DNA from: Catajapyx aquilonaris
Lineage: Eukaryota
Assembly: GCA_000934665.2 (NCBI GenBank)
Contig: JYFJ02002291.1
Coordinates: forward strand, 1-59,856
Direction of reading: 5' to 3'
Length of the DNA: 59,856 nt
Shown: one piece after another, positions 18,351-47,700 of the stretch
Position numbering within the stretch: the first letter of the stretch is position 1
Layout: every line of letters begins with the position of its first letter
Position numbers and translations under genes: made by a program
The notes under the pieces: model-generated
What the model was told of the DNA's origin: nothing
Database searches by the model: none
The model's input: the letters and a program-made list of their open reading frames with translations, nothing else

Positions 18351-19678
18351 AAGAAGTGTCCTCAAAGAGAAAACCTTGGAGTGACCTGGGGTCAGTCTTC
18401 GCCAGGAATTGTTGCAAGGCCATGAAAAAAATTACAACCTTTATTTTCATCGCCTCACACTTTTGCCCGAAAGATATTCTGTGGCTGTCAATTATTATAT
18501 TGTAGTTTTATAACCACAATTTGCATTGCATTGACGTTTATTGAAAGTTGAAGTTCCATTTGAAAATGCTAGAAAATGTAATAGTGGTAAGCCATATTGA
18601 AAATCTTTGTTATAATTATATCTGTTGTCTCACATGATGAATAAATATATTCCTTCTGCTCAGTCAATGTGGATATTGTTATTTCAATTGCATTGTTACC
18701 TGGGTATATGTGTGCTTGCAGAAACATTTATTTTATAATGCTTAAATTGATTTGTTCACATGATTTATTTATGCATATTAAGCTCTGGATATAAAAATTA
18801 AGCACCTTACAGTCTTCCACTAAGAACAATCTGCAATGTCTTTGTACCACAATTTTTATTGCATTGATCTTCATTGAAAGTAGTGATTTATTATGTGTAT
18901 CTGGAATTATATTGCGGACATAATTATGTAAGTGAAGGGACGAGGGAAAGAGAAAATTACCTTGGATTTTATATTCATATGATTAAGCCATCTAATGTAG
19001 ATGCACACAGCTGTCCAGCATGAAAGATCATGAAGATATGCTGTACAAATAAAGAAGTATAATATCCAGCAAGATGTGATATTATATGCCAATGTTTTGT
19101 GGATAATTTCTCTGGGGCGATTTGGACACAAATCGCTCAGTGGGTAAATCATATGGGTAGAATTGGGTGAGTGGACAGCGTTTGTCTCAGGGGCAAGCAA
19201 ATCTACATCGTCGTCTACGTCGTCTACTGTTGGTCCCTCCACATTTCCCCCACCTACATTTTAAACTTGGTTTGGGCCAAGGGATACGCTGAAGGCGACA
19301 TGCTGGACTATAGTAACATACACCCTATTTTCACTACCAGTACTATTAAAAATAGCAGTGATCAACATTGGGATTTTTAACAACAACAATATACCGCCAG
19401 GCCTGTGGCGGTTAACATGTTTTCTCTCAAACTGCAATATTACTATTGCAGTTCGAGTTTGGCACACTAAACATTATCTTTTGGAGTTTACCTCACAGCC
19501 GCTTCATGTAACCTTCAGGATGTTGCCTTTTGAATCGCACAGATAAGATAAGATATCGCTTCCTCCCTTTTTTTGTTTTGTCACTTATAAGATGATTCAA
19601 GAGTAATTTGCCAGTTGGCTCCCATCTGCTTGGCAGGCTCTTGGTTCAAGCGGCTTCTGGATGCAGGGATAAACAACG

Positions 19679-22600
19679 ATGCAGTTTGTATTTATTGCAT
19701 CATTGTTCATACTGCTTTCACAACGAAGTTTACAAGGTGAGCGAATTATTTATTACTGTATAATGGTGTAACATATTGTTCATGGATTCAGCTTATGTAC
19801 TGTATACCACAGGGTCGTGTATTGCCCAACAATCCTTCAGCTCATGTCATGAATTGTTTACCACAGCAACCAATAAAGAAGCAACAATCTCGATAGGTCT
19901 ATGGTGCTCCGAGTAGCTTCTATTTGTACTGGTTGCTGGGATAAACAATGCATTACGTTCCTTGAACTCGGGACTTTCTCAGTACTGTACAGTACAACAC
20001 CCTGCACCCTGTGAAATGGTTGCTAGCTGAGCAGTAAAGGCATGTTGTAAAATTGATAGCACGAAGACTATACCCACACCTGCTAAAACAACAAGGAACT
20101 GTCTGAGACGCACAATACCATTAATACGTATACCGTTTATGAATCTTTATTTTTAGACGAGGTCTGCGTCGTATCGGCAGAAGATGTCATGTCGTATGTA
20201 AATATGCAGGATCAATGTGACAGGTATATTGTCAAGGCGGCCTCCATCGAATGTGCCAAAGGTACCGTAATTATTTCATCCATATCACATTATTAGCCCA
20301 AGTATGGATTGCTAAATATTATTTATTATGTCTTATTACATTTATTATCTTTTACAACACATAATATTTAAAATAATTTATATCGTCTTCAAGTGCTGAC
20401 TACATCAAGGTACAGAATAGTTGGTGGTTGTTCCCAATACATATTCGGCATATCACTGAGCAACGACAGGAACATTACAGATTTACTCTATAATAAGATG
20501 TAAGTTGTGTTATGAACAACATTATACATTTAAATGCAACCTGCCCTAATTCGGATGATTTAAACTTTCAGATTTGTAAACTGCACAAAATTGGCGGATG
20601 AACTGATGACAAAATTACAAGAGTTTGAAAAACCTTGCGGCAACGCATCTGTATTGCAAGTTGAACTGGGATTTAAAACGGAGCTTACGGAGTCGCCAGG
20701 ACCAGTTTTTACTGCAGATATTACCAAGTATAATTTTTATCATACTTTAATCTGAAATGTGAAGCAGAAATTACAATTGTTGACTAATTACAGCTGCTGC
20801 ATCGTAATAACTAGTAGAGACTCAACAAGTCAACGGAGAGTGCCCACGGAACTAGAATTACCCAGGAAGATGCATGTGACGAATGCAACATTGGCCTGCT
20901 TAGATGATGGTAATAAAATAGCAGTGCAGATATACAGGGTGTATTATGAACCTGTTAAATTCTGCTTCTGATTTTTCTTCAGCCGAAAAAGCTGAAGATT
21001 ATGGCTGGAAGTCAGGATCGTGCGTGAACTCATCCGTTACACTAATGCCAACTAATGTTGGACAAGCTTATGACATTACACCATACATACGATACAGGTT
21101 AGTATAGAACTGTGTTATAGTGATTATGATTATGATTATGATGCATTTTGTGCAGTTGTCAAGGGATGGGATGGTGCTATTTGTACAACGACATATTCAA
21201 AGAAATATCTCGCTGCAATGAGAACACGCTGGCTATGATAAGAGTCGAATACTCGCTTGAAGAGGGACTGAATTATTGCTTACCCAATAATTCAATATAT
21301 TACGGAGAAGTCCCTAATTCGTACGGATGCCTGTACCACTTGACAGATCAATTGCAGTGGACAGCGTCGAGAAAAAAGTGCATTGATCTCGGTGGAGACA
21401 TTCCATATTACTACGACAAAACGGTCATACTACTTAAGAAATATTTGCCAAATGATACGGTCAGCACTTGGGTAAAAGGTTACGGGATGAGTCTCCGCTC
21501 GCCCACAAATAATCCCACACTGAACATCACCAAAAATATGGCCCTTGACTGGTCCAAATCTGACAACATCACAATTCAACCAGACGGAACTGCAATGAGC
21601 ACAATTTGCGTCCTGCCCACTTATCGCAAAGACGATTACCCGACCACAACCACAGCAACAACACCAGTCTCTACCACTAGTAGTGTACCAACGACAACAA
21701 CAACGACAACAACAACCAGCAAGCCAGGTAAAAAGTGTCCTCAACGAGAAATCCTTGGAGTGACCTGGGGTCAGTCTTCGCCAGGAGTTGTTGCAAGGCC
21801 ATGCCCTGGAAACGGTCAAGGAAATGCAAAATGGACATGCGGAAGTGACGGACAATGGAAAACAACATATCCGGACATGAGGTAAGCAATTTTCCATTGG
21901 ACAATGGACATACACACTTTTTTTAAAAATGCAGTTGAACAAACTAACAAAATCGCATTTGAAGTCTTGAAATCCTGAACAATCAATGGACGACAAATGG
22001 TCGTTTTTTCATAATTAAAACAAACCATATACACTTTTCCTGTCTTGTTGCAGCGAGTGCAGCTCCTTTGAGCCAGAATGGAACAATGCACTGAGTTTGT
22101 TGAATGCAAACAAACTTGCATCTCACGTGATGCTAAACTTGTCTGAAGTCATAGTGAGAAACGAGAGCAGCTTCCAAGCAGGAGACATCAACAAGGCAAT
22201 ACAAGTGCTGAACAAATCAATAAGTGTTCAACAGAAGCAGTACGAAGATTGCTTACACACAAAAGACCACGAGTAAGATTATAACCGACGAATATTACAA
22301 TAATAATACACTGTAAAAATATGTATTGTGAGCCACATTTTTCTTTACAAGACAATGCAAGGATATGGCAGAAATGTTCATGCAGTCTGCTTTGAACATA
22401 AGTGGGGCTTCTCTGGAAGAACCTTTGTCGTGGAAGACAAATCCGGAAATCAACAGGAAAGGGTCTGAATATTTTGATGTCATAGACAGGATTGGGTTTC
22501 AAGCCTTGACGTCCGTGACAATCCAGAACTATTCTATGAACAACATATGTAAAGCATTTATTTAAAATAATTATTAATACCTGAAATGCAGAAAAAATTA

Positions 22601-24555
22601 TTATTGACCATTTCTGCATTTCAAGTTTTTCAAAAATGGTTGAGTTTTATCCACATTTTGACAACATTTTCTTGTCAGATTTTTCGCCGAACATGGTGCT
22701 CGAAAAAGACGTCGATAACCAAACCTTGCGATACAATTTCCCAACCGGATCTCAAATTTACTTGCCGGATGAAGCAATTGCTCAAGGAACTGTGAATAAC
22801 ACATGGAGAGGAATTTATCTGACTTTTTACAACATGCACGAAATTCTAGGAAACAACTTGCAACTGTAAGTTTTTATAATGGCATTCAAAATTAAATATG
22901 TAAATTTGCGTAATTTGCAGAAATATTGGGGATGAGAAGAACTTGAGCAACATTGTGGTGAGCGTTCCTGTAGGAACATCGCTTGGAGAATATGCGAGGA
23001 ACATAAGTTTCAGCAACGGAACAGTGAGGTTGAGGGTCAAGCACGAGGTCAGCTTGAATAATTACAAGTTAATTAATCGACGGTGTGTGTATTGGGACAC
23101 GACAGAGGACGAATGGAGGACTGAAGGTTGCGAAACATTTTCTGTCGAAGGAGACATCACAGATTGCGAATGTAGTCATCTGACCAACATGGCAGTACTT
23201 ATGGATTACGATGGGGTCATACACAATGGGGGTCAGGTAAAATGGTCATCAGTTGTTATCCTATATGTTCACATACTTGATACATTTTTGTTTCAGTTTG
23301 AAGCGGCCATATCAGCCATCACGATAGTCGGTTGTTCCTTGTCCATCATCTGCCTGATCATTGCACTGATCATATTTTATGCAGTGAGATCACTCGGAGG
23401 TCTTCGCATGGTCATACATGTCAATCTGTGCTTCACATTGCTTGTGGCTCAGATGACCATGGTTGTTGGTCTGGACTCCACGGCTAACGAAGCAGGATGC
23501 AAAGTCGCAGCTCTTTTCATGCACTATTTCTTCCTATCCACATTCTGCTGGATGCTGATCGAAGGATTTCAGCTGTACCTCATGATCATTGTGGTATATT
23601 CAGAATGTTCAAACATTTTGGCAAAAGTTACACACAATTATGATTTTTTTTGCAGGTTTTTGACACCGTTGCTCTGAAGATGTGGCAGATATTTTTGGCA
23701 GGATATGGTTTTCCGCTTCTTATTATTGTGATATCAACATCTAGCTGCTGGAAAGGTTACGGAACAAAGCAGTAGTAAGTGTCTGAAAATGCAAGTAAAA
23801 TATTATGTGCTATGTGTGAATCAGTGTTATTTAAAAAAAATGTCTATTTCAGTTGCTGGTTAAGCCATGAAAACGGGCTGATCTGGGCATTTCTGGCTCC
23901 GGTTCTGATCGTTATTATGGTAAAGACTTCTTGACATTACATGTTTGAATTTTTGTCGATAATTTTTGTGACTTCAGATCAATTTGGGGATATTGGCGGT
24001 GACACTTCGAAAAGCCAGAAAGGCCATGCAAAGGTCTGAGGGTAGAAACATGCCAAACAAAACACCAGTGGTTTGGCTAAAAGGACTGACATCATTGGCT
24101 GTGCTTTTGGGAATCACTTGGCTCTTCGGATTTTTCCTCTTCTCACAAGGTTAGACTCTTCAATCAAAAACATTGAGAATGTTTGAAACGTATGATCCTC
24201 CTTATCTTTTCAGAACCTCCAGGAGTGGTGAAAGGACTGGAAGTGATATTTGCAATCCTGAATTCATTGCAAGGAGTGTTTATTTTCGTGTTTCATTGCA
24301 TAATGCAAGCTGATATCAGGAGGGCGTTCAAGAGGAGGATGTTGAATCAGTTCCCTTGGTTATCTGAGGTGTGTAAATACCTATATCGCAAATATAGATG
24401 ACAACAAAATCAAAAAATAATTATGAGATTCCGGGATGGGTATATTAATGAGCATTTAAGTTTATCTCTCAAAATATCTACAACTTCCATACTTTAACAC
24501 ATTTTCATTGCAGGTGACCAGTTCCATACGAGATATAACACAATCTAAAACATGA
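19679..24555 (+). CDS. Latrophilin/Cirl-like adhesion GPCR A (17 coding exons): SUEL-like x2, CTLD, Thr stalk, HRM, GAIN/GPS, 7TM, short tail
   Basis: Signal exon 19679-19736 MQFVFIASLFILLSQRSLQ; DITPYIRYSCQGMGWC...IRVEYSL (SUEL-like); WTASRKKCIDLGGDIP (CTLD); CPQREILGVTWGQSSPG...CP...AKWTC...W...PDMSEC (HRM); CVYWD...WRTEGC...CECSHLTNMAVLM (GPS); LFMHYFFLSTFCWMLIEG, LLGITWLFG and NSLQGVFIFVFHC (secretin-type 7TM). All exons splice in frame to TGA 24553-24555. Confidence 0.93.
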
Positions 24556-25313: not shown

Positions 25314-28300
25314 ATGCATTTCTTCAGTTTGGGAATAATTCTTGCACTTACAGTCCATTTCTGTGAAGGAGGTAAGTGAATATTTGTAGCCATATGTAGG
25401 AAAATATTGACCACTTTTAAGAGCGATTTAAGATAATAATTAGAGTTGCAGTCAATTTTCTGAAATTTTTTGTTTTCTTTTTAGAATGGACGTGTTTTAC
25501 CACAAATTCAACGACGATTGCGTCTCAGCACATTAACAATGCCATCAAAACACTCGACTCAATTATGAAGGTTAATGCCAAATGTATCTCAGGTTGTACA
25601 TTTTGCTTCATTTTATACCATGTGTTTCATAATTATTTAATAATTACACGTATCTGTCTGCAAAAAAAATCTGAAAATATGCGAATGTCAATCTGACGCC
25701 GAGACATTTTCAGATATGTACGCGCGCAAAATAATATTATGAAACACACATATTTAAAACATTATTGTAAGGATATCCTTAATGGACGATTTACGATTGT
25801 GAATGGAATTATGCAATAATAATTCATCGCACATTGCTTAAAATTGTCTCATCATAATTCCACACAAGACGTTTCTTGTTTCAAGTTGTTCCTACCTATA
25901 AAACCAATTAGGCTAAATTTTAATAGAATAATATTAAGATGTTAATGATATGTTTTCTAAAGGCCCTATCATATCAGTTGAGGAGTGTGAAACAGAGGCC
26001 ACGAAGCACATAGAAGAATATGCCATTGATTTGACGGATCTGATTAAGAGAGGGTCAGCCTATACGCTTATTATTATGTCCTTATCATTACCTGATAATG
26101 AACTGATTTGGTTTGTTTTAGATGCCAAAATATTTCCCAATGTGCCTCAACAATTAACGACAGAATCATGAATCGAGGAAACTGTAGTCCACTACACAGC
26201 ATCATGATTATGATCAACTATGGGCTACACATGGGCTACACATTTGGAGTTGACATAGGCACATGTTACACGTTTGGCCCTAGTTCAGGCACGACAATAC
26301 CGCCAAATAATAGGTTTCCTATAATTCACAAGAAGAGTCCTGATGGTCATACATCGAATGATCAACTGTTCATTGCAAATGCGACACTGGCCTGCTTCAA
26401 CGGTTCTGGTCAGTATTTAATGCACTCCTTGTACTTCCCATTGCCTTTTTAAAACCAGGACATACCTACTGTACAACCAAACAATAATATTTTTCATTAT
26501 GATTATTGCGCAGAAGCTTCAGTAGAAAGATTCGGATGGATAGTGGATATCTGCACAGAAGACAGTCACAGATTCCCTCCAGACGTAGGAATTACACGTC
26601 AGGCTACAACTTACATGCGGTACAGGTAAGGATTAGTTTTCTTTTCAGAGTATGTCACAACAATCATACTCCATATTAAAATTTTAATGGTTCCTGTTGA
26701 TAACTAACAATATTTGGGCATGATAACATTAAGTTAGTTCCAAGCGTTTGTGAAAATAGTATGTTTGTGTGTGACTATGAGCCTATATAATTATACAAAT
26801 ATTACAGATGCCAAGGACGCACCGAATGCGAAGTGCATCTCGACTCATTAGTGCTTGACATAAACGACACCAATTGTCTATCGTCGTCGCCGTTTACAAC
26901 AAGAATGCTCCGAGTGGAATACCAACTGTTGCAAGACATAACACTTTGCCAGAATGTCGGTGCCAAGCTGATTTATAATGTCGACAATTTCTTTTGCTTG
27001 CTGTACGTCGAAGACAAACAACAATGGAGAGATGCAAGAAACCAATGCAGGGCATTAGGAGGAGATCTTCCATACTCTGCATGGGACACTCATGATGACT
27101 TTTTGTCCTATGGAAAGCATCAGGGGCTTGTATGGGCGAAAGGAAATTCTTCTGTAGATATACGAACTCCAACTCAAGGCGATGCTATTATAATGCCTAA
27201 TGAAGCAATCTGGTGGGTTGGAGGAACTTGCTTCCCAATCATCACGGACAAGATCATTACTTCATTTTGCGTCCTGCCTCCCTACCCACATGACTGGGAG
27301 CCAACAACACTATTCCCATCAACAACATCAACCAGCATAACACTAACGACTCCTTCCACACCCACACCCTCCTACAGTTATCCAACAACAACACTTATGT
27401 CAACAACTCATTCACTAGCCTCAACTACGACTTCACATAAAACGTCAACTAAATTATCAACGTCACCAACGTCAACATCATATAAATCACCAACAACATC
27501 AACACCAACTACGGAACCAACAACAACGAAGTCGATTCAGATATCATCAACAACTTCAGCAACATCTACTTATCACCCAACACAATCACCACCAGTGAAA
27601 TCGACAACACGTGCAACTCAGCCAACAACGAGAGGGTCAACCACTTCCACAGCACCAGGCACAACAGTCCCACCCAAAAGCATGTGCAGTGCTGAAACCA
27701 TTCAAGGAGTGACCTGGGGACCGTCCAGTCCAGGGGTGGTCACCAAGAAATGCCCCGACTCTGACGACCAAGCAACTTGGACGTGTGGTGAAGACTATCA
27801 ATGGACCACTCCTTATCCAGACATGAGGTATATAATTAAGGTGTCGGTATATGCCACATATGCGTATGTGGTGCGACAAGTGGCATTTTCCTATCACTCC
27901 TCTTTCCACAGCAACTGCAGTGCTTTTGGACCAGAGTGGGACAAGGCGTCCAAAATGCTCGATGGGAACACATCTGCTTCCCAGGTCATGCTAGATCTAG
28001 CCACCAACATTATGGGCAAGGAATCTGACTTTCAAGCGGGGGATATCAACAACGCCATTGAATTAGTGAATAAGTCAGTAGGAATTCAAGGAGTTCAGCA
28101 CCAGCAGTGTGTGGATCAAGGAAAAGGGTAATTCCACAATATTGGTGACATAATTTTTTAAATATATTTAGTAATTTAAAAAAAGGGAAGAGTGCGAAAG
28201 AGAAGCGACGTTGTATACTGAGGCCACACTGAACGTCACCGGAGCATCTCTGTCCACACCCATGGCATGGAAGACGAATCCGGATAATTACAAGATAGCC

Positions 28301-30604
28301 TCTCAATTCTTCAGTACGGTTGATATCGTCGGAATCAAGGCTACAGAGTGGATCACCCCACAGAATCTTTCTTTGGAAAATATATGTAAGGAACACATTA
28401 AATAGTATCAGTCATTGTGGAGGTTATTAAAGGGTCACTATGTTATGCTGTTAATGGCATCTTTTCATTCATTAGATTTTACTCCAGAGGTTCACACACC
28501 TGGAGAAATGAAAATGAGTGACCTGGAATATGAGTTTCCATCAGGATCAAGCATCAGTCTGCCTCAATGTGCACTCAATGTAACTGGTGTCAACGACATG
28601 TGGAGGGCAACATTTTTCACCTTCTACAAGATGCATCAAATCCTAGGAAACAACATGCTTTTGTGAGTCTCAATTTTTGCCCAGTCAATAAATATTGCAT
28701 GTCTTATCCATCATTTTTAAAATACAGAAACCAGAGTGCGGAAGAAGGCAAAAACTTGAGCGGAATAGTAGTAAGCATACCGGTGGGGACTTTACTAGGC
28801 AGCCATGAAAGTGTCAAATTTGCTCATGGAAAGGCTGTAATTGAGTTAAGGCACGTGTACAGACCCAGAGAGCACAACCTGAGCAATCCCAGATGCGTCT
28901 TTTGGGACACGGATCACAGCACATGGAGCGAGGTAGGCTGTTCGCTCACATCACATCGCGAAGAGTACAGCAGGTGTGAATGCAGCCATCTAACCAACAT
29001 GGCAGTGTTGATGGACTACACTGGTGCTATACACAGAGGAGGAGAGGTCGGTTTTACACTGCTTTGAAAATGAATGAAATAGTCCCACTTAACCTCCTGA
29101 AATCTGTAGGCCTACACATAATTTGTTAATGTCAATTTAAACGAGTGTAACACTTTTCAGTTCGAGTCAGCCATAACCATAATCACGACAGTCGGCTGCA
29201 GCATTTCCATAGCGTGCTTGATCACGGCTCTGATCATCTTCTGGGTGGTTGGATTGGGATCGAACCTGCGAGTCACTATTCACGCCCATCTCTGCCTGTC
29301 ACTACTGGTGGCTCAGGTGACAATGGTGTTCGGACTAGACGCCACTGGAAGCAGGGCAGGATGCAAAGCTGTTGCGATACTGTTGCACTACTTCTTTCTG
29401 ACCGCCTTCTTCTGGATGTTGCTGGAAGGATATCAGCTCTACAATATGATAATTAGGGTATAAGTCATTTTGCTGTGAAGTGTGATTTGCAATGTCATGA
29501 TCAAATCACCATTCCATGTAGTAATTGCGAAGTCAAAAAAATTCATCGAAACCAGTAGGCCCTAATGATAATATTTTCTCTGAATAATTTCAAAACATTA
29601 TGTGCCATTATTGAGCACTTGGAACACACTGTTGCAGGTATTTGACACAATGGGTCTGCGAAAGTGGAAGATTTACCTGACAGGTTATGGCCTGCCACTT
29701 GCTATAGTGTCGATATCAGTAGCTGTACGTTGGGATGGTTATGGCACAAGTGAATAGTAAGTGATCATTATTGGAACAAACAATTTATAACTTCATACGT
29801 ATGTATAACATGCATATATTCTTGCAGTTGCTGGCTAACCAGAAAGGATGGGCTGATTTGGGCATTTTTGGGTCCTGTAGCCGCAATAATTTTGGTGAGT
29901 TTCCTTTCAGTTAACATGTCTCAGTTAAGGCAGTAAATGTTTTCTTGCAGACGAATATTGTTATCTTGGTGGTTACTTTACGGACTGCCCATAAGGCGAT
30001 GCAGAAGAAGGAGGGTCGAGCCATGGCCACTAGGTCGTCCCTGGTCTACTTGAAGGGCTGCGTGTCGCTTATGATACTCTTGGGAGTCACTTGGGTGCTC
30101 GGCCTGTTCCTATTCGCAAATGGTAACCTCACAAAATGGTGCACTGATTGTTTTTGACAATGTGGTACAACATGATCAATTTTTTTAAAGAACCGACTGG
30201 TGTCATTCAAACGCTGGAAGTGGTTTTTGCAGTGTTAAATTCACTTCAGGGAGCCTTCATATTTATCTTCCATTGCATTTACCAAGGGGACGTCCGAAGA
30301 ACATTGCGAAGGAAAATTGACAGGAAGTTCAAATGGCTGTCTCAGGTAAATTCCAATTTTAGCACGATACATGTAAAGAAGACTGCTGATGAGTGACATT
30401 GAACTAGTGGCAATAATGACACATGCTCTCAGTTAATGATATTACAATATTATTAGCACTGTAGTGCCAGACAAATGGCTTGCAATTCATGATAAAATTA
30501 ATTCTGTCGCATTACAGGTTACTACCACATTCAACGGAAGCCAAACGACCAGCAGCACAAGCCGGAAAAACACGCTCCCCACAGTGGTTCAGAATAGTAT
30601 TTGA
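25314..30604 (+). CDS. Adhesion GPCR B (SUEL-like x2, CTLD, ~128-aa Ser/Thr stalk, HRM, GAIN/GPS, 7TM)
   Basis: Signal exon MHFFSLGIILALTVHFCEG (25314-25371); TTYMRYRCQGRTEC...MLRVEYQL; WRDARNQCRALGGDLP; CVFWD...CECSHLTNMAVLM; HYFFLTAFFWMLLEG; NSLQGAFIFIFHC. Last exon 30518-30604 ends VVQNSI*. Confidence 0.93.
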
Positions 30605-31082
30605 AATCTCCAGGAATCCCAATGGCTTATTATTTATATTCCTTACTGAAGTGCAGGGTGACTGAAATATCCATACTGTGCTCAAAAATTCTCACTTCAC
30701 AATCATGTATTTCACTTAAAAATAAATTTGCGGAACCTTCGCCAAGCAGAACTGCATGCTGTATTAATGAGTAACAGCAAGAGCTCCCGGTAAATAGTAT
30801 TAAATCACAACTTATCCCCTTTATTTATTTTGGATAACCTTCAGCGGGAGCCTATACCAAGTAAGATGTGATAATGCACATCAGTATGGGTCAGTAACAT
30901 TACAACTTTATCATTGCCAGTATCTGAAGTTGCATTTTCTGTATAACATGCATAGATAGATATTCGTCTAAAGATAAGAGGATAAACATTATCAATATAT
31001 TAATACTGTCTTGTAAGACTAGGATGTCAAACATGTGCGGACTCTGTCAGTGGTAGAATGGAGAGTGACTAAAAAGTGTACA

Positions 31083-34000
31083 ATGCATTTCTTCAGTTTG
31101 GGAATAATTTTTGGACTTACACTCCATTTCTGTGCAGGAAGTAAGTGAATATTTTGTACACACATTATGTAGGAAAATATTGCCCACTTTTGAAAGTGGT
31201 TTAAGATATAGTTGCAGTGCATTAATCTAAATTTTTTATTTCCTTTTATAGAATGGGCGTGTTTTACCACAAATTCAACGACGATTGCAGCTCAGAAAAT
31301 TAACGATGCCATCAATATACTCGACTCAATTATGAAAATTAATGCCAAATGTATTTCAGGTATGTACGGTACATGTAAAATGTACATTTTGCATCATATT
31401 ATACAATGTATTTCATAATTAAGTTCACATCACTGTATCAGCAAAAAAATCTTCAAATATATGTATGTCAATCGAATGTCTAGACATTTTCACTGATATG
31501 GGTGCGAGCTATGATCTGAAACATACCAGGGTATATTAATAATATTGATAATATGCCTTTAATTCACGATTGCAAGTGGAATATATTATATATGTAATAA
31601 TAATAAAGCCAACCCTTTGCCTTGGTTGAAATTGTCTAATAATCGCGCACAAAATATTTCCTTAATTAGAAAGGTTCCTGCCTATAAAACCCTTAGGCTC
31701 GATTTTAAGTGAATCATTTAAGATGCTAATGATGTTTTCTAAAGGTCGTGGCACATCTGTTGAGAAATGTGAAACAGAGGACACGAAGCGCACAGAAGAA
31801 TATGACATTGATTTGACGGATCTGATTAAGAGAGGGTCAGCATACGATTTGCAGAAAACTTTGATATTATGTCCTTATCAATTAGTTCATTACCTGATAA
31901 TCTACTGATTTGGTTTTGTTTTAGGTGTCAAAATATTTCCCAATGCGCCTCCACCATCAACGACCGAATCATGAATCGAGGAAACTGTGGTCCACAAGAC
32001 AGCATAATGATTATGATCAACTACGGGTCTTCCATAAAAGACGTGGTTGGCTGCACAATTATTGGAGTTGACTCAAACACATGTTACACGTTTGGCCCTA
32101 GTTCAGGCACGACATTACCACCAAATAATAGGCTTCTTACTCCCAAGAAGAGTCCTGATGGTCATACATCGAATGGTCAACTGTTCGTTGCAAATGCGAC
32201 ACTGGCTTGCTTCAATGGTTCCGGTCAGTTTTTTCTTGTACTTCTCATTGCCTTTTTTCAACCAGTATACGTACCTACTGTACAACCAAACAATAATTAT
32301 TTTAATCCTGATTATTGTGCAGAAGCTTCAGTAGAAAGATTCGGATGGATAGTGGATATCTGCAAAGAAGACAGTCACAAATTTCCTCCAGACGTAGGAA
32401 TTACACGTCAGATTACAACTTATATGCGGTACAGGTAAGGATTAGTTTTATCTTCAGAGTATGTCACACCAATCATAAGCCATATTAAAAAATTAATGGT
32501 TACTGTCGATAACTGACAATATTTGGACATGATGTTACAGTAGTTTCAAGCTTTGTTTGTGAAAATATTATACACGTTTGTTGTGTATGTGACTATTAGT
32601 CTATGCAAATTACAGGTGCCAAGGGCGAACCAAGTGCGAAGTGCATCTCGACTCATTAGTGCTTGACATAAATGACACCAATTGTCTATCGTCGTCGCCG
32701 TTTACAACAAGAATGCTTCGAGTGGAATACCAACTGTTGCACAACATAACACTTTGCCAGAATGTCGGTGCCAAGCTGATTTATAGTGACGCCAATTTCT
32801 TTTGCTTGCTGTATGTCGAAGACAAACAACGATGGACAGATGCAAGGAATCACTGCAGGACATTAGGAGGGGATCTTCCATACTTTTCATGGGACACACA
32901 CGATGACATTTTAAGCTATGGAATGCTAAATGGGTCTGCATGGGTCAAAGGAATTTCTTCTGTAGATATACGCACTCCAACTCATGGAGGCGAGATTATA
33001 AGGCCAAATGAAATAATCATGTGGACTAAAGCAAGAGCAATTACAATCTTCACTGACAGGAACATGAGTTTATTTTGCGTCTTGCCTCCCTACCCACATG
33101 ACTTGGAGCCAACAACACCGTACACAACAATATCAACAATACCATCAACAGTGTCAACCACTTCCACAGCACCAGGCACGACATGTCCTTCCAAACACAC
33201 TTGCAGTGATGAAACCATTCAAGGAGTGACCTGGGGGATGGTCACCAAGAAATTCCCTGACTCTGACGACCAAGCTACTTGGACGTGTGGTGAAGACTAT
33301 CAATGGATCACTCCTTATCCAGACATGAGGTAAAGCCTCTATGTGGTGCGACAAGTGGCATTTTCTATCACTCCTTCTCTTTCCACAGCAACTGCAGTCC
33401 TTTTGGACCAGAGTGTGACAAGGTGTCCAAAATGCTCGAAGGAATCACATCTGCTTCTCAGTTCATGCGAGATCCAGCCACCAACATTATGAGCAAGGAA
33501 TCTGACTTTCAAGCGGGGGATATCAACAACACCATTGAATTAGTGAATAAGTCAGTAGGAATTCAAGAAGTTCAGCACCAGCAGTGTGTGGATCAAGGAA
33601 AAGGGTAATGCCACGATACTGTTGGCCCAATGCTTGTACACATAGGTACCGGTATTGCTGATTTTAATTTGAAGGCAAGAGTGCGAAAAGGAAGTGACGT
33701 TGTATACAGAGTCAACATTGAATGTCACCGGAGCATCTCAGTCCACACCCATGGCATGGAAGACGAATCCGGATAATAATTGTTCCAGGTGATAATTATG
33801 CAATACTTGCGCTTCCCACATCTAAATTGGTAAATTAACTCACTGCAGTTAAAACTAATAAGAGCTGCTGAAACAAACAATTCATAACTACTTACCTATA
33901 ACAGGTGCATGTATTCTTGCAGTTGCTGGCTAACCAGAATGAATGGGCTGATTTGGGCATTTTTGGTTCTGGTAGTCGCAATTGTTTTGGTAAGTTTATT

Positions 34001-34745
34001 TTCACTTGACATGTCTCAGTTAAAGCAGTGAAAGTTATTTTTTTCCAGGTATATATTGTTATCTTGGAGGTTACTTTACGGACTGCTCGTAAGGCGATGC
34101 GGAAAAAGGAGGGTCGAGCCAATGGTCGAGCGGGTCGAGCCATGGCCACTAGATCGTCTGTGATCTACTGGAGGGGATGCGTGTCGCTTATGATACTCTT
34201 GGGAGTCACCTGGGTGATCGGCCTGTTCCTATTCGCAAATGGTAACCTCATCACAAAATGGTGCACGGATTGTTTTTGACAATGTGGTACAACATGGTCA
34301 ATTTTTTTTAAAGAACCGGCGACGGGTGTCATTCAAACGCTGGAAGTGGTTTTTGCAATGTTAAATTCACATCACGGCGCCTTCATATTTATCTTTCATT
34401 GCAGTTACCAAGGGTATGTCCGAAGAACATTGCGAAGAAAAATCGATAGGAAGTTCAAATGGCTGTCTCAGGTAAATTCCACTTTTAGCACAATACATGT
34501 AAAGAAGCCTATATGACTGCCGAGTAACATTCAACTAGTGGCTATAATGACACGTACTCTTATAGTTAATACAGTAATATTACTATATTATTAGCACTGT
34601 AATGCCAGACAACTGGCTTGCAATTCATGATAAAATTAACTCTGTGACATTACAGGTTACTACCACATTCAACGAAAGCCAAACGACCAACAGCAATACA
34701 AGCCGGAAAAACACTCTCCCCACAGTCGTTCAGAATAGTGTTTGA
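31083..34745 (+). pseudogene. aGPCR copy C: internally deleted (lacks most of GAIN, the GPS and TM1-4); retained exons still open
   Basis: Paralogous to B and D. Homology breaks at ~33778 (KTNPDN) and resumes in the intron before the CWL exon (~33880). The HRM is damaged (TWGMVTKKFPD vs TWGPSSPGVVTKKCPD) and NSLQG is changed to NSHHG. I found no frameshift or stop in the retained homologous exons. Confidence 0.7.
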
Positions 34746-35249
34746 AATCTCGGAATCACAATGGCTTATTTATATTTCTTACTGAACATCAGGGTGGCTG
34801 AAATATCCCTCCTGTGCACAAAAATTTTAAATAAATGCTTCTTCGCATATATTTTATACTTAAAAATTGTGCGGAACATTCGCCAAGCAGAACTGCATGT
34901 TGTACTAATGAGTAACAGTATTAAATCACAACTTATCATTTTTCACAGTGCAAATTCTTTATTTGGGATAACCTGCATCGACCTGTATTACACTTCGTAT
35001 ATCCGTTGTTGATGTTGTCAGACAGCTCATGTCAAACCCGCCATTAGTAATAAGTTGTTCTTGCACTAATAAATGGTATAAGTATAAGGTAATAAGTCTT
35101 ATTATACCTCCAAATTAATGGCTATAGGTGGACATTGTCCACCTATATCCATGAATTTGAACGGGCCAATCATTGTCCACTGGACCCATTTAAGGAGGAC
35201 ACAGAAATACAAGGAGAGTCCTACAGCAGCCTGTGAAGTATGCTATGAC

Positions 35250-35313
<64 letters not shown>
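35250..35313. repeat. (AAT)n microsatellite
   Basis: About 21 units; absent from the paralogous upstream regions of B and C. Confidence 0.95.
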
Positions 35314-35314
<1 letters not shown>

Positions 35315-35544
35315 ATCAGGGAGGGTCAGTTACAACGTCATTGCCAAGTATACCCGAAGTTGGAATTTTGCTATCAGATAGAGTCATAGAGATATTCGAC
35401 TATCTCGATAAGAAGATAAACCTTATCAACCTTTAGTCGGTCTTAATATTTTGTAATTGACTTGAAATATGTCAAACATCAGCGGTCTCTTTCAGTGGTA
35501 GGCATGCCCCTCCATGGAGAATGACTGAAAAGGGAACATGTGCA

Positions 35545-38500
35545 ATGCGCTTCTTCAGTCTCGGAGTAATTTTTGCAGTTACAGTACCCTTCTGTGCAGG
35601 CGGTAAGTGAAATTTTCATAGCTATATGTGCAGATAAATATTGCTCACTTTCGAGAGTTTTTAAAAACTACGGTAGTTGCAATGCCGTTTATATATTTTT
35701 TCTGTTTCTTATTAGAATGGGTGTGTTTTACCACAAATTCAACGACGATTGCATCTCAGAAGATTAGCGATGCCATCGAAATACTAGAATCAGTTATTAA
35801 AGTCAATGCCAAATGTATTTCAGGTTGTACATTTTGCTTCATTTTATTCAGTGTGTTTCGCATCAGTATCTGCAAAATAGTCAAGTAGTGTTAGACATAC
35901 TCTATTAAACTATAATTATTTTGAATAAGATACAAGTTATTAATGATATGTTTTTCTAAAGGCCTTAGCACCGCTGTGGAGGAGTGTGAAACGGAGACCA
36001 TAAATCCCATAGAAGAATATGCCATTGATTTGACGGATCTGATTAAGAGCGGGTCAGACAATGCTTTGCAGATAAACTTTGATATGTCCTTATAGTACTA
36101 CCTGATAATGAACTGATTTGGTTTGTTTTAGGTGCCCAAATATTTCCCAATGTGCCTCAGCAATGAACGACAGAATCATGAATCGAGGAAACTGTGGTCC
36201 ACAAGACATCATAATGTTTATGATCAACTACGGGTCTTCCGTCAAAGAGGAAGGTTTTGTCAGCACAACTGGAGTTGAATCAAACATACCATGTTACACG
36301 TTTGGCGCTGGTACAGACATGACATTACCGCCGATGAGTCCTAATATTACATCGTATGATCAACTGTTCATTGCAAATGCGACACTGGCATGCTTCAATG
36401 GCTCCGGTCTGTATTGATGTTCTTGTACTTCCCAGTAATATTTTTAAAAACCATTACTGTACGATCGGATATTATATTTTTCATTCTGCCTGTTGTGTAC
36501 AATCTTCAGTAAGAAGCTACGGATGGGTAGTGGAGTTCTGCATGGCAGACAGCCACCGTCTGCCGCCAGACGTAGGATATACACGTCAGGTTACAACTTA
36601 CATGCGGTACAGGTAAGTTAATTAGTTTTACTTTCAAAGTGTGTCTGTGACAATTAGCCTATGCAAATTGCAGGTGTCAAGGGCGAAACGAATGCGAAGT
36701 GGATCCCTTCATATTGGCGTCTGATATAAATGACACCAACTGTCTAGAGGAGTGGTCCCCGTTCAAAAATAGAATGCTCAGAGTAAAGTACCAACTAGTG
36801 CAAAACTTAACACTCTGCCCTAATGAAAGTAGGCCTACCAAGCTGATTCCTAATGTCAATAATTCGTTTTGCTTGCTGTTTGTTGAGGACGAACAACAAT
36901 GGTCAGAAGCAAGAAATTACTGCAGGTCATTAGGAGGGGATCTTCCATACTATGCATGGGACACTTATGGTGACTTTTTGTCCTATGGAAAGCATGAGGG
37001 GCTTGTATGGGCGAAAGGAAATTATTCTGTAGATATACGAACTCCAACTCAAGGCGATGATATTATAATGACTAATGAAGCAATCTTGTGGGGTGGAAAA
37101 ACTTGCGTCGCAATCATGACGGACAAGAACATGAGTTCATTTTGCGTCCTGCCTCCCTACCCACCTGACTGGGAGCCAACAACACTATTCCCATCAACAA
37201 CATCAACCAGCTTAACACCAACGACTCCTTCCACACCCACACCCTCCTCCAGTTATCCAACAACAACACTTATGCCAACAACTCATTCACTAGCCTCAAC
37301 TACGAGTTCACATAAAACGTCAGCTAAATTATCAACCCCACCAACGTCAACATCATATAAATCACCAACAACATCAACATCAACTACGGAATCACCAACA
37401 CTACAATCTACTCAGATATCAACAACAAAAACAGCATCAACATCTACGGAACCAACAACAATAAAGTCGACTCAGATTTCATCATCAACAACATCATCAA
37501 CTACAGAACCAACAACGCAATCAACTCAGATATCAACAACAAAAACAGCATCAACATCTACGGAACCAACGACAATAAAGTCGACTCAGATTTCATCATC
37601 ATCAACATCATCAACTACAGAACCAACAACGCAATCAACTCAGATTTCAACAACAACAACAACACCATATACAGAACCAACAACGAAGTCGACTCAGATA
37701 TTATCAACATCTTCAGCAACATCTACTTATCACACAACACAATCACCGCCAGTGAAATCGACAACACGTACAACTCAGCCAACAACGAGAGGGTCAACCA
37801 CTTCCACAGCACCAGGCACAACAGTCCCACCCAAAAACATGTGCAGTGCTGAAACCATTCAAGGAGTGACCTGGGGACCCTCCAGTCCAGGGGTGGTCAC
37901 CAAGAAATGCCCTGACTCTGACGACCAAGCTACTTGGACGTGTGGTGAAGACTATCAATGGACCACTCCTTATCCAGACATGAGGTATGGTAAGCCTCAT
38001 GTGGTGCGACAAGTGGCATTTTCCTATCACTCCTTCTCTTTCCACAGCAACTGCAGTGCTTTTGGACCAGAGTGGGACAAGGCGTCCAAAATGCTCGAAG
38101 GGAACACATCTGCTTCTCAGGTCATGCTAGATCTTGCCACCAACATTATGGGCAAGGCATCTGACTTTCAAGCGGGGGATATCAACAACGCCATTGAATT
38201 AGTGAACAAGTCAGTAGGAATTCAAGAAGTTCAGCACCAGAAGTGTGTGGATCAAGGAAAAGGGTAATGCCACAATATTGGTGACATAAGTTTTTTAAAT
38301 TAATTTAGTAACTTAAAAAAGGGAAGAGTGCGAAAGAGAAGCGACGTTGTATACTGAGGCCACACTGAACGTCACCGGAGCATCTCTGTCCACACCCATG
38401 GCATGGAAGACGAATCCTGATAATTACAAGAAGGCCTCTCAATTCTTCAGTACTGTTGATATCATTGGAATCAAGGCTACAGAGTGGATCACCCCACAGA

Positions 38501-40917
38501 ATCTCTCTTTGGAAAATATATGTAAGGAACGCATTAAATAGTATCAGTCATTGTGCAAGTCATGAAAGTGTCATTATGATAAAACCCAGAAAAATTCTCC
38601 TGTTTTTATGCATGAAAGCCCAAATATCAATTCTTTATGTGTCAACACAATGAAGTTATTTCTTCAACCACAATGGGTCATAAATATTGTTTACAATGCG
38701 GTCAAGTTTACCAAGATTTCCAGGCTCATACATGTCAACTTTTCATTCATTAGATTTTACTCCAGAGGTTCACACACCTGAAGAAATGAAAATGAGTGAC
38801 CTGGAATATGAATTCCCATCAGGATCAAGCATCAGTCTGCCTCAATGTGCACTCAATGTAACTGGTGTCAACGACATGTGGAGGGCAACATTTTTCACCT
38901 TCTACAAGATGCATCAAATCCTAGGAAACAACATGCTCTTGTGAGTCTCAATTTTTCCCCAGTCAATAAATTTATTGTAGGTCTGATCCATCATTAAATT
39001 TTTCAATACAGAAACCAGAGTGCGGGAGAAGGCAAAAACTTGAGCGGAATAGTAGTAAGCATACCGGTGGGGACATTACTAGGCAGCCATGAAAGTGTTA
39101 AATTTCCTCACGGAAAAGCTCTAATTGAGTTAAGGCACGTGTACAGACCCAGAGAGCACAACCTGAGCAATCCCAGATGCGTCTTTTGGGACACGGATCA
39201 CAGCACATGGAGCGCGGTAGGCTGTTCGCTCACATCACATCGCGAAGAGTACAGCAGGTGTGAATGCAGCCATCTAACCAACATGGCAGTGTTGATGGAC
39301 TACACTGGTGCTATACACAGAGGAGGAGAGGTCGGTTTTACACTGCTTTAAAAATGGATCAAATAGTCCCACTTAACCTCCTGAAATCTGTACACATAAT
39401 TTGTTAATGTCAATTTAAACGAGTGTAACTACTTTTCAGTTCGAGTCAGCCATAACCATAATCACGACAGTCGGCTGCAGCATTTCCATAGCGTGCTTGA
39501 TCACGGCTCTGATCATCTTCTGGGTGGTTGGATTGGGATCGAACCTGCGAGTCACTATTCACGCCCATCTCTGCCTGTCACTACTGGTGGCTCAGGTGAC
39601 AATGGTGTTCGGACTAGACGCCACTGGAAGCAGGGCAGGATGCAAAGCTGTTGCGATACTGTTGCACTACTTCTTTCTGACCGCCTTCTTCTGGATGTTG
39701 CTGGAAGGATATCAGCTCTACAATATGATAATTAGGGTATAAGTCATTTTGCTGTGAAGTGTGATTTGCAATGCCATGATCAAATCACCATTCCATGTAG
39801 TAATTGCAAAGTCAAAAAAACTCATCAAAACCAATTATTATAATATTGTGCCCCATTGAAGTTTCTCACTGAATAATTTCAAAACATTCTGTGCAATTAT
39901 TGAGCTCTTGGAACAAACTCTTGCAGGTATTTGACACAATGGGTCTGCGAAAGTGGAAGATTTACCTGACAGGTTATGGCCTGCCACTTGCTATAGTGTC
40001 GATATCAGTAGCTGTACGTTGGGATGGTTATGGCACAAGTGAATAGTAAGTAATAATTATCGGAACAAACAATTTATAACGTCTTACCTACGTATAACAT
40101 GTGCATGCATTCTTGCAGTTGCTGGCTAACCAGAGAGGATGGGCTGATTTGGGCATTTTTGGGTCCTGTAGCCGCAATAATTTTGGTGAGTTTCCTTTCA
40201 ATTAACATGTCTCAGTTAAAGCAGTGAAATGTTTTCTTGCAGACGAATATTGTTATCTTGGTGGTTACTTTGCGGACTGCCCATAAGGCGATGCAGAAGA
40301 GGGAGGGTCGAGCCATGGCCACTAGGTCGTCCCTGGTCTACTTGAAGGGCTGCGTGTCGCTTATGATACTCTTGGGAGTCACTTGGGTGCTCGGCCTGTT
40401 CCTATTCGCAAATGGTAACCTCACAAAATGGTGCACTGATTGTTTTTGACAATGTGGTACAACATGATCAATTTTTTTTAAAGAACCGACTGGTGTCATT
40501 CAAACGCTGGAAGTGGTTTTTGCAGTGTTAAATTCACTTCAGGGAGCCTTCATATTTATCTTCCATTGCATTTATCAAGGAGATGTCCGAAGAACATTGC
40601 GAAGGAAAATTGACAGGAAGTTCAAATGGCTGTCTCAGGTAAACTCCACTTTTAGCACAATACATGTAAAGAAGCGTATGAATGCAGTAATTGTAACATT
40701 AAAATATTAGCAATAATCATGCTCTCTGTCATGTACTGACATTCCTAAATTATTAGCCCTATAACGCCTTCCATTGTGAATAATTCTTGATGAAATAATT
40801 AATGTCTTGATGAACTATGTCGCATTACAGGTTACTACCACATTCAACGGAAGCCAAACGACTAGCAGCACAACCCGGAAAAACACTCTTCCCACAGTGG
40901 TTCAGAATAGTATTTGA
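35545..40917 (+). CDS. Adhesion GPCR D (as B, with expanded ~220-aa mucin stalk)
   Basis: Signal exon MRFFSLGVIFAVTVPFCAG and the same exon series as B. ORF 39497-39742 is identical in protein to 29218-29463. GPS SHLTNMAVLM; TGA at 40915-40917. Confidence 0.93.
37404..37700 (+). repeat. Coding 114-bp tandem repeat (38-aa Thr/Ser unit) in the stalk of aGPCR D
   Basis: Unit QSTQISTTKTASTSTEPTTIKSTQISSSTTSSTTEPTT starts at 37404 and 37518, with a partial unit at 37632. Confidence 0.9.
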
Positions 40918-44730: not shown

Positions 44731-47700
44731 ATGGACGCATTGTATATTGTACTGGTTACTCTCAGTACTCTTTCGGTGTATCCCAGCGATGTTGGTAAGC
44801 AATCGCAACATTTATTACAAATCAGAGCAATAAATTTTGTCAATAATTTTATTTCACCAAATTCAAAGTAAGAGAACAAAGTGCTCTAGCTCTGACTTGG
44901 ACATAATTTTCACTAAAACTAGAACAACAACCATTATTAGGAGTATGTACAGTACATGTTGTCATCTAGGCAATAAGACGAATGTGACAGCACCACCAGA
45001 ATCAAGGAAACAACAGCCACAGACATCCCCGTCAAAAGCTACAAGTCATCCACCTACTTCAACCACATTTCACTCGTCACTAACCACACCAACGACGACA
45101 ACGACAACGGCATCGGCGACAACATCGACTAGACCGACATCTGAAACGACAACGACGGTGACGACAGAAACAACTCCAGCACACATGAACATGTGTCGAT
45201 CATCTGAAATAATCCAAGGCTTGAACTGGGGGCCGGTCGCCCCGGGTCGGACCCAAATACAGAAATGTCCATCAGATTGCGAAGGACAGGCGATGTGGAC
45301 ATGTGGACAGGACGGACATTGGTTGACCCCGTATCCGGATATGAGGTATTGTAAAAGGGAAACACATGCTCATGTCCACATTATGATTGTCGTGATTGTC
45401 TTTGCAATTTTCAGCAATTGCAGCGCATTCGAGTCGGACTGGACACAAGCAGTGACTCAGCTGAATGGAAGTGATTCTGCTTATCAAGTTATGACCAGTC
45501 TGGCGGCCAGGATCATGAAGAAGGAGTCCAGGTTTCAAGCGGGTGACGTCAAACATGCAATCCAAGTCTTGAGCATGTCGTTAAAAATGCAAAAATCGCA
45601 ATATCGACAATGCATGTCGTACAGAAATCCGTAAGTCGCTAACGGTACATTTTTATGCAGAAGTGTCACCATTTTGATGGCCAAGTCTACAAACATTACA
45701 AGCCACTAATAATATTGGGTGGAATTTTCGTCCCACTACTAGCTACTGCTAACAGGCTGTTAGCAGTAGCTAGCAGTGGGACGAAAATTTAACCATTATT
45801 AATAAAAAAGTGATCAAAGTCATCAATCAAAAATATTATGTGAAGTCAGACATTCCGACCAAAAATGTACTAGATCATTCATTATTATTTACCCAAGATT
45901 ATCCTCAATCCATATTCTTTATAACTTATAATTATGTCTTCCCATATCAGCAAACAGACTTTATCTGCAAAGTGTAATCAGATCTGGTATTGCCAACGTC
46001 CGGTTCCATTAGCAAGTACTTGAACTGGAGAGTACTCCAATATGCTCATAAATTCAGTAGATATAAAACTTAGATTAAAACGTGATGTCAACTTTAAATA
46101 GAACTGACTGTAAAATTAAACTACAAGTAGATTACGTATAAACATCAAAAAACTAGTGCAGAAATTGTATATAGTGTGGCACAGATTTTGATTGAAATGC
46201 TGCTTTGCTAAAATGTGAACTGTAATATTTATTTATTTATTTATTTATGTTACCCCTTACGAGGCCATAGCCCTTTTGGGGGGGGGGGAATGTGAACTGT
46301 AATACTCGTGTTATACTTTGATATCGGTTTACTTATTTGAAGGAAAAAGTGCGAAGAGGAATCACGGACGTACACTGAAGCATCTCTGAACATGAGTGGA
46401 GCGTCTCTGGGTGCAACAATGGCTTGGCTGACCAACTCTGAGATGAATCAGATGGCTTCGGATTTCTTTTTGATCCTGGAACATGTAGGATTTCAAGCTA
46501 CAGAGGCAGCAGTCACGCAGAGAAATTACTACACGGACAATATTTGTGAGCCAATTATTTGCATGCTTTCAATGAAAGGACATGAAGAAATATTTGTCTC
46601 ATACATAGCAATGAGCTATATGAAATGCGACTTTTTAAAATACAATAATACGAGTCAAGTATTGTTATCATCTGTTACAGATTTTACACCAAAGTCCTGC
46701 GCTGTTGGCAACGTCACCAGAAATAATCTTCAGTATTCATTTCTATCCGGATCGATCATTATTCTGCCCGAGTCCAGTGTTAAAGATGGATCCGTCAACG
46801 ACACTTGGACTGCGACTTTCTTCACTTTCTATAAAATGCACTACATTTTAGGAAGCAACATGCAAATGTAAATTCACGTGTTTTAAAATTAATTGCCATT
46901 TGGAGGGGGGTAAAAAGCGAAAAAGCGACAGTGTGTACGATATACGGTTATTGGAACAAACGTTTCACCATAATGATGCATAATGTTCTAGTGTATTCAT
47001 GATCATTATTTTGGCAGGAATGACTACATGAATATGGGACAGAATCTGAGCGGCATTGTTGTCAGTGTCCCGATAGGAACTTCGTTGGGTCTTCCAGGAA
47101 GAAGTGTCCGATTCAGCAGCGGTAAAGCCAGATTGGTCCTGAAGCACGTGTACAGTCCGACCAAGTTAAATCTGACCGGTCCAAGATGCATGTTTTGGGA
47201 TGTTGACCAGAGCTTGTGGAGCGACCATGGCTGCTATTTGGTTTCGTGGGGAGAAGACAGCAGCATGTGTGAATGCAACCACTTGACAAACATGGCCGTA
47301 CTGATGGACTACGCCGGTGTCATCCATCACAACAGCAGACAAGTTAGTAGAAAATGAGTAACATATAATATTGGTTGGTAATTCCAACAGTGCATGCTGC
47401 GCGAACTGTGGTGCGCACTCGGTTGCGCTCGTTTAAAAAAAAATCTCGTTTTCATATGTTTAAATACATTTTGTGGCTATTTTCAGTTCGAATCGGCAGT
47501 GACTGTGATCACCAATATCGGCAGCTGCATTTCCATAGTTTGTCTGATAGTGGCCGAAGCCATATTCGCGGTGGTGAGATCATCCGGAAATATGAGGATC
47601 ACTATCCACATTCACCTGTGCGCAACTATCCTGATCTCTCAGGCCATATTTTTGGCAGGATTTGACGCCACGGACAATCCAGCAATTTGCAAATCTGTGG

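Follow-up and report, generated by a model that had tools for sequence, protein, structure and literature searches.

The 59,856-nucleotide (nt) contig JYFJ02002291.1 of Catajapyx aquilonaris (assembly GCA_000934665.2), which in its entirety is referred to here as the window, is eukaryotic DNA of ~40% G+C whose forward strand carries paralogs of an adhesion G protein-coupled receptor (GPCR) in tandem. Three of these copies, termed B, C and D, are the subject of this article. An earlier note, made from the letters of the window, had described them as variable, mosaic lectin heads on a nearly invariant body composed of the GAIN domain and the seven-transmembrane (7TM) domain, and had attributed this pattern to diversifying selection plus gene conversion or unequal crossover. 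The best overall explanation, which is given a probability of about 0.78, is that of tandem adhesion-GPCR paralogs with conversion between B and D, strong purifying selection on the body, and heads under weaker constraint.

Genes and domains of the tandem array

Copies B, C and D were delimited by self-comparison of the window and a three-way MAFFT alignment; a gene model was built for B from conserved GT..AG sites, and its exon borders were then transferred to D (Table 1). Both are predicted to be intact adhesion-GPCR genes, with position 25314 being the ATG of B and position 40917 the last position of the stop codon of D. Contigs from a public sequencing run of unrecorded type (X5) cover parts of B and D and skip two predicted introns at GT..AG: one joins exon 15 of B to exon 16 across 30346-30517, a joint that revealed the last exon, and one joins exon 10 of D to exon 11 across about 39331-39439, while another is identical to B 27029-27282. 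Because contigs with spliced joints lie on B and D, both genes are probably expressed. No X5 contig lies on C or on exons 1-5, a gap in cover that is uninformative either way.

In the body, exon 11 scored 86.8 bits against Pfam 7tm_2 (cut-off 20.6), with exons 12-14 also matching, and Pfam GPS scored 49.2 bits (cut-off 22.5), while HRM was seen below threshold only. The cleavage consensus stands within CSHL/TNMAVLMDY (the slash marks the predicted cut) directly before the first transmembrane segment (TM1) in B and D, and it has been deleted from C. Upstream of GPS, the alignment of D with P0037, a predicted protein of 2365 amino acids (aa) from a representative library, extends across the GAIN that Pfam defines in the latter, at 29-31% identity. 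Among solved structures, TM1-3 matched ADGRD1 (9e-20), ADGRL3 (1.8e-17) and ADGRE5 (3.7e-17), with ADGRL2 also near, and the GPS exon matched ADGRF1 and ADGRL3. Word-indexed protein searches limited to longer proteins gave no match with either the head or the GPS exon as query. Membership in the latrophilins (ADGRL) was not borne out, as no olfactomedin signal was obtained with Pfam and the best solved match of TM1-3 was ADGRD1. On these grounds, B, C and D appear to be tandem paralogs of a lineage-specific adhesion-GPCR family (class B2); open-access keyword searches of the literature did not find this SUEL-like plus C-type lectin-like family described, which is no proof of novelty. Judging from the motif and the family, the head would bind ligand, GAIN would cleave itself at HL/T, and the tethered TNMAVLMDY peptide would activate the 7TM domain.

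The first head domain, which extends across exons 4-6, appears SUEL/rhamnose-lectin-like. In its C-terminal half it can be aligned with the SUEL_Lectin that Pfam defines in P0037 (head profile and BLASTP; E=3.5e-7), whereas Pfam gave no family at E<=10 on single exons, which are only pieces of a domain spanning exons 4-6, and BLASTP of exon 4 of D alone against P0037 gave no match. The SUEL or rhamnose-binding lectin (RBL) domain is described as having YGR, DPC and KYL motifs together with eight conserved cysteines (PMC10817417). In the head these motifs are degenerate, with NYG lacking the R, D-T-N-C in place of DPC and R-M-L in place of KYL; the domain contains at least nine cysteines and is split by an insertion of about 60-70 residues. 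The loop following the YG motif, written NYG...C, is hypervariable in B, C and D, and the strongly different heads with in-frame indels reported in the earlier note are exact in the loops quoted there; exon 4 measures 287, 299 and 275 nt in B, C and D, lengths that place the indels in frame.

Two further observations concern the head exons. In the 5' part of exon 4 of B (26122-26250), B is the odd one out, with 15 C=D sites versus 6 B=C and 8 B=D sites; the B-specific changes there (5 synonymous and 14 nonsynonymous, plus a 15-nt deletion) could reflect a burst confined to B or a micro-conversion whose donor was an unseen paralog. Additionally, a contig of the DNA run X2 (depth 11.7 versus 34-111 total) shows three variants in exon 6 of B, at 26944, 26951 and 26978, all nonsynonymous by our reading, which represent either an allele or a paralog elsewhere in the genome.

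The second head domain appears, from its profile matches and a structural model, to be a divergent, compact C-type lectin-like domain (CTLD). A profile of the heads of B, C, D and a more distant copy, A, retrieved 81 proteins at E<=1e-3, and 9 of the 11 matches scanned with Pfam carry Lectin_C; P0037 is among the scanned matches. An AlphaFold2 model built from an alignment with 17 of the profile matches reached a mean confidence (pLDDT) of 78.4, and its listed Foldseek matches are all CTLDs (TM-score about 0.5). The nearest Atlas clusters to the head are Lectin_C (score 0.81), which serves as a lead only, and phmmer against the PDB gave weak mannose-receptor CTLD matches only (E about 0.1). 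Set against this assignment, the alignment used for the model itself contained CTLDs, which leans the model to that fold, and a first model from four sequences without CTLDs was unusable (pLDDT 33.6). The label "lectin" is nominal, because Pfam Lectin_C scored 15.4 (B), 14.8 (D) and 16.5 bits (C) versus a cut-off of 22.6, over the first third of the profile only. The Ca2+- and sugar-binding motifs of CTLDs are EPN or QPD in the long loop and WND on strand 4. Neither EPN/QPD nor WND was seen in the head alignments of B, C, D and A; A and C also lack the C2-C3 disulfide, and the region of the long loop is short. These heads thus offer no support for sugar binding. Downstream of the CTLD, a tandem repeat in the mucin stalk explains most of the extra length of D, the B-D alignment of exon 6 containing 291 gapped columns.

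Table 1. Coordinates of the genes, tracts and motifs of the cluster, counted from the first letter of the window
Feature	Position	Strand	Description
Gene B	25314..30604	+	16 exons, 1161 aa; 15/15 introns GT..AG, open reading frame (ORF) open
Domain order of gene B			Signal peptide, SUEL-like domain, CTLD, mucin stalk, HRM, GAIN/GPS, 7TM, short tail
Copy C	31083..34745	+	Exons 1-7, exon 8 remnant (33675-33788), exons 13-16
Gene D	35545..40917	+	16 exons, 1254 aa; architecture of B with longer stalk; each border mapped from B is GT/AG, ORF open
Hypervariable loop after NYG, SUEL-like domain	B 26216..26266, C 32019-32084, D 36226-36294	+	17, 22 and 23 residues in B, C and D
B-D conversion tract, B side	27100..30321	+	3.2 kb, introns included; max-chi2 informative sites
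B-D conversion tract, D side	36975..40614	+	Mapped through the MAFFT alignment
CTLD 3' half, fast-evolving patch inside the tract	B 27100..27300, D 36975-37175	+	75 codons
Mucin-stalk tandem repeat of D	37362..37706	+	114-nt (38-aa) unit, 3.1 copies; Tandem Repeats Finder
Nested younger B-D tract	B 28837..29495, D 39121-39774	+	Covers GPS, Stachel, TM1-3
GPS cleavage consensus H-L/T	B 28987..28995, D 39271-39279	+	Followed by Stachel TNMAVLMDY

The conversion tract shared by B and D

Conversion and selection were assessed with our own Nei-Gojobori counts, Kimura two-parameter (K2P) distances, maximum chi-square (max-chi2) with permutation, and run-length tests. In 150-column windows, B is closest to C (identity 0.83-0.94) as far as about B 27031, closest to D (0.91-1.00) as far as about 30290, and closest to C again downstream. 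At triplet informative sites joining B to either C or D, B agrees with D at 193 of 216 sites inside the tract and at 133 of 414 outside. The two-breakpoint max-chi2 is 186, a value reached in 0 of 200 permutations (maximum 21.6), so that the switch of affinity described in the earlier note goes far beyond chance. The 5' breakpoint lies at 27031-27100, inside the CTLD part of exon 6, and the 3' breakpoint at 30321-30351, at the end of exon 15. The former falls between the two peptides quoted in the earlier note, whose switches of affinity along the gene are exact: C equals B in HLDSLVLDINDTNCLSSSPF, D equals B in YGKHxGLVWAKG, and C equals D in TDxNMS.

The introns and silent sites follow the same boundaries. 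The B-D K2P distance is 0.44, 0.33, 0.15, 0.37 and 0.20 in introns 1-5; 0.13, 0.07, 0.22, 0.10, 0.03, 0.11, 0.14, 0.06 and 0.00 in introns 6-14 (67 differences in 753 nt, about 0.09); and 0.35 in intron 15. Synonymous divergence (dS) between B and D is 0.056 in the body versus 0.32 in the head. Where a residue is conserved, the codons of B and D are the same at 131 of 131 positions in TM1-4 and 316 of 332 from HRM to GPS, and at 149 of 185 in the head. Residue differences number 11/298 in GAIN plus GPS, 2/278 in Stachel plus 7TM and 1/60 in HRM, while the head segments show 24/86, 46/144, 22/69 and 16/75. The earlier note was thus right that the GAIN of B and D differs at few residues and that their TM1-3 exon ORFs are identical in protein, an identity that extends to the nucleotides, as exon 11 (B 29161-29457, D 39440-39736) is the same at 297 of 297 positions.

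Interlocus gene conversion between B and D is strongly supported by these observations. The contrary proposal, that no conversion took place and the bodies of B and D are alike through extreme purifying selection alone, is barely tenable. It is in keeping with the low ratio of nonsynonymous to synonymous divergence (dN/dS) of 0.18 in the body and with the identity of exons 11 and 12 next to introns that differ, but protein constraint cannot make introns 6-14 three to four times closer than introns 1-5 and 15, cannot yield the difference in dS between body and head, and cannot explain why B is closest first to C, then to D and then to C again. It was rejected on intron K2P, synonymous divergence and this switch of relatives.

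The origin of B as a chimera, whether through a single unequal crossover that joined a C-like to a D-like gene or through misassembly of paralogs, is likewise very unlikely. The genes are in tandem, the 5' breakpoint is sharp, and an assembler could be misled by stretches as long as 344 nt in which B and D are identical. A single crossover, however, predicts one breakpoint, whereas the B-C similarity returns after 30345, with 30 B=C versus 9 B=D sites in intron 15 and 24 versus 9 in the 3' flank. As B resembles C on both flanks, the pattern is that of a conversion tract (non-crossover), and the single unequal crossover was rejected; of the two mechanisms offered in the earlier note, conversion stands, with a bounded tract that includes introns, and unequal crossover as a single event does not. 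Misassembly was rejected because contigs of the DNA runs X1 and X2 agree with the window, including a 695-nt contig (36360-37054) that spans the D breakpoint without mismatch; this support is weak, since the runs may be the assembly's own data.

Within the tract lies the mark of a second, younger and shorter conversion over GPS-TM1-3. It holds 6 differences in 658 nt versus 144 in 2563 nt in the rest of the tract (Poisson P=4e-10), and the longest B-D identical run (29151-29495) lies over exon 11, with 0 of 20000 random placements as long. Exons 11 and 12 together (exon 12: B 29638-29756, D 39927-40045) show 0 differences in 416 nt. Beside exon 12, differences begin at most 7 nt from either end.

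In terms of history, B and C are the younger sister pair, as judged by both flanks and the 5' half, and D is older (K about 0.3); interlocus conversion then homogenised B and D over 3.2 kb, from mid-CTLD to the end of exon 15. The combination of a constant body and variable heads thus reflects mainly two ages of divergence together with purifying selection that is strong in the body. B-type sequence probably replaced that of D in most of the tract, as distances weakly suggest: C is about as far from B and D within the tract as B is from C outside it, which favours B-to-D copying. The distances of C to B and D within the tract are 0.12-0.23 in introns 6, 12 and 13, with dS of 0.11-0.22, and introns 6, 12, 13 and 14 fit this direction.

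Several points weigh against this account. Intron 11, between the identical exons 11 and 12, has 18 substitutions in 178 nt, and a single nested tract accounts for exon 11 and not for exon 12, whose identity may stem from chance, exon-limited short conversions or synonymous-site constraint. C is equidistant from B and D in the CTLD 3' half (dS 0.34 and 0.33) and in intron 7 (0.57 and 0.65), which fits D-to-B copying; since these two regions do not suit B-to-D copying, at least three events are needed. The direction of conversion is read from distance levels, which may only weakly indicate it, and the comparison covers the three sequences of the window, donors outside it being possible. Additionally, exons 1-9 are without transcript support, and ligand binding, autoproteolysis and signalling of B and D are predicted functions.

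Selection on the heads, and the fate of copy C

On the 5' side of the breakpoint, head dN/dS is 0.43 for B-C, 0.60 for B-D and 0.63 for C-D, and the B-D head value amounts to three times the body value (Fisher P=7e-4). The heads are therefore under weaker but real constraint (dN/dS 0.4-0.6). By lineage, the head changes comprise 19 synonymous (S) and 25 nonsynonymous (N) in B (nonsynonymous deficit P=0.001), 14 S and 21 N in C (P=0.011), and 27 S and 76 N in D or the stem, where the ratio (omega) of 0.78 is near neutral. TM1-4 shows 0 B-D differences in 139 codons, a zero that is unexpected both versus the dS of the rest of the tract (P=7e-4) and versus the intron rate (P=1e-4).

In sliding windows, pN/pS of 1 or more occurs in two places only, namely columns 100-160 (the NYG loop region) and columns 300-392 (the CTLD 3' half). 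Windows over the former give 0.9-3.4, with B-D at 1.5-3.4, and the region holds 29 N and 5 S, a ratio of 1.8 that does not reach significance (P=0.21). The B-D differences in the CTLD 3' half comprise 17 nonsynonymous and 0 synonymous changes (binomial P=0.013 for a post hoc region; Fisher versus body 1.3e-5), and the changes come from both lineages (5 and 7). The long loop and strands 3-5 are the usual ligand face of CTLDs, and 12 of 14 replacements listed by eye fall at model residues 83-108, which comprise the end of the long loop and strands 3-5. The dN of this patch, 0.104, is not above the intron divergence of the tract (K=0.089, Poisson P=0.39; P=0.022 with exon dS). Both patches were chosen after the data had been seen, and about 10 regions were tested. 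The two surface patches, the NYG loop and the CTLD face (long loop, strands 3-4), appear to evolve at or above the neutral rate; as the dN of the CTLD 3' half does not exceed intron divergence and the region is post hoc, relaxed constraint and positive selection are inseparable there.

These data bear on the proposal that the heads owe their variability to diversifying selection, as immune-type recognition receptors do, with conversion only keeping the chassis uniform. The threefold contrast between head and body, the pN/pS of 1 or more at the NYG loop and the CTLD 3' half, the purely nonsynonymous changes accumulated in the latter by both lineages after conversion, and four in-frame indels in exon 4 all speak for it. 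It is nevertheless unlikely, since whole-head dN/dS is below 1 in 3 of 3 pairs, the B and C lineages are short of nonsynonymous changes, the NYG-region excess is not significant, the dN of the CTLD 3' half lies within intron divergence, the regions are post hoc among about 10 tested, and relaxed loop constraint gives an omega of about 1 equally well. Diversifying selection, as claimed in the earlier note, is thus unsupported for whole heads, with a local hint suggested in the two patches.

The outcome is largely the one that the earlier note had named as pointing to a recent 3' conversion with no selection: head dN/dS lies below 1, and B-D intron divergence tracks exon synonymous divergence, with introns 1-5 at 0.15-0.44 beside a head dS of 0.25-0.55 and introns 6-14 at 0-0.22 beside the low dS of the body. 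The excess of head over body and the two patches speak against taking that outcome as complete. A more far-reaching proposal, somewhat more doubtful than selection on the heads as such, is a germline-diversified recognition system, in which two lectin-type head domains would be driven to change at the NYG loop and the CTLD face while repeated short conversions would keep the GAIN-Stachel-7TM module shared; this would amount to an invertebrate set for non-self or partner recognition on GPCR signalling, with C perhaps retained as a membrane-anchored, non-signalling head.

Copy C has lost ~1.5 kb equivalent to B 28288-29772, from the end of exon 8 through exon 12, and with it GAIN-B, GPS and TM1-4. 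Its stalk is very short, and in its HRM 5 aa are deleted and a Cys is replaced by Phe. In the surviving body, 18 of 109 GAIN residues and 21 of 131 7TM residues differ from B, so that the nearly invariant GAIN-7TM body of the earlier note holds for B and D and not for C. The omega specific to the C lineage is 0.41 in the head and 0.46-0.62 in the body, whereas the body of B and D has 0-0.27.

C is most likely a young pseudogene. It is quite improbable that C is alive as a truncated head-stalk-HRM protein on TM5-7 (three transmembrane segments, correct topology), serving as a non-signalling adhesion protein or decoy. The remaining exons are all open, the five indels noted in its coding exons are all in frame, exon 7 or the exon 8 remnant at the AG/GTGATA site can be joined to exon 13 with the frame kept, and the head lineage has the deficit of nonsynonymous changes given above. 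A living C is opposed, however, by the loss of a conserved HRM cysteine and most of the stalk and by the raised omega of its body; moreover, the constraint may predate a recent deletion, and the frame match has a 1-in-3 chance.

Further, far more distant copies were found by tblastn with B, namely A (about 21157-24371) and E (about 45188-48570), in addition to a head-only fragment, A0, at 17618-18260. The 5' half of A is itself tandemly duplicated (15640-18424 versus 19411-21803, 87-97% identity) over a length that takes in the SUEL end and the CTLD exon, where 2 of 175 amino acids differ, and the upstream fragment A0 seems to have a head without a body. Conversely, the HRM-GAIN-7TM region of E (45188-48570) is 38-45% identical to B, with no B-like head found upstream by tblastn. 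A perfect (AAT)21 microsatellite lies between C and D (35250-35313). Several X1, X2 and X5 contigs match only stretches of the GPS region (28869-28908; 28978 onward) and then continue as unlike sequence, which indicates that further family members exist in the genome beyond those of the window; copy A accounts for one of these contigs.

Comparison with known receptors and implications

The domain order of latrophilins takes in an olfactomedin domain (OLF), a Ser/Thr-rich stalk, GAIN and 7TM. Latrophilins (CIRL, ADGRL) also have RBL and HRM domains (PMC6900090), and B and D resemble them in the order of an N-terminal rhamnose-lectin-type domain, a second globular domain, a Ser/Thr-rich stalk, HRM, GAIN/GPS and 7TM. 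B and D differ from them in that a CTLD replaces olfactomedin and the SUEL-like motifs are degenerate with a large insertion, and their TM1-3 is by sequence at least as close to ADGRD1 as to ADGRL3. A distant relative is P0037, an adhesion GPCR with SUEL_Lectin, a CTLD-like stretch, GAIN, GPS and 7tm_2, whose identity to D is 29-31% in HRM-GAIN-7TM and 28% in the SUEL end and CTLD, and in which the gene caller seems to have merged two tandem genes.

The cluster is lineage-specific, and its mode of evolution is an ordinary one already described for receptor genes. In the Toll-like receptors TLR1 and TLR6, conversion keeps the signalling part alike while the ligand-binding part diverges (PMC2077338). 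TLR1/TLR6 and B/D have in common that they are tandem receptor paralogs with sharp, domain-internal tract boundaries, that the membrane-proximal, transmembrane and signalling part is homogenised while the N-terminal binding part diverges, and that conserved residues more often share the same codon inside the tract. The TLRs, however, are single-exon receptors with leucine-rich repeats (LRR) and a TIR domain, in which repeated independent conversions took place across nine mammals (PMC2077338), whereas B and D are 16-exon adhesion GPCRs with a tract that includes introns, compared within the sequences of one species. The discussion of the same article cites EMR2 (ADGRE2) as a conversion-maintained chimera of CD97 (ADGRE5) and EMR3 (PMC2077338). 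These, like B and D, are adhesion-GPCR paralogs made mosaic by conversion, with head and 7TM of different ancestry; in EMR2, however, homogenisation with CD97 affects the head (EGF domains), and the 7TM is EMR3-like (PMC2077338), whereas in B and D the body is homogenised and the heads stay apart.

For tandem receptors in general, a contrast between head and body should be read first as ages of divergence set by conversion, and only then as selection. In this case, a lineage-specific adhesion-GPCR family combining a SUEL-like domain, CTLD, mucin stalk, HRM, GAIN and 7TM has been delimited with complete gene models, and two small patches have been named as worth testing for ligand specificity. 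Should the local selection prove real, the cluster would offer a tractable example of how binding surfaces diversify on a conserved GPCR chassis.

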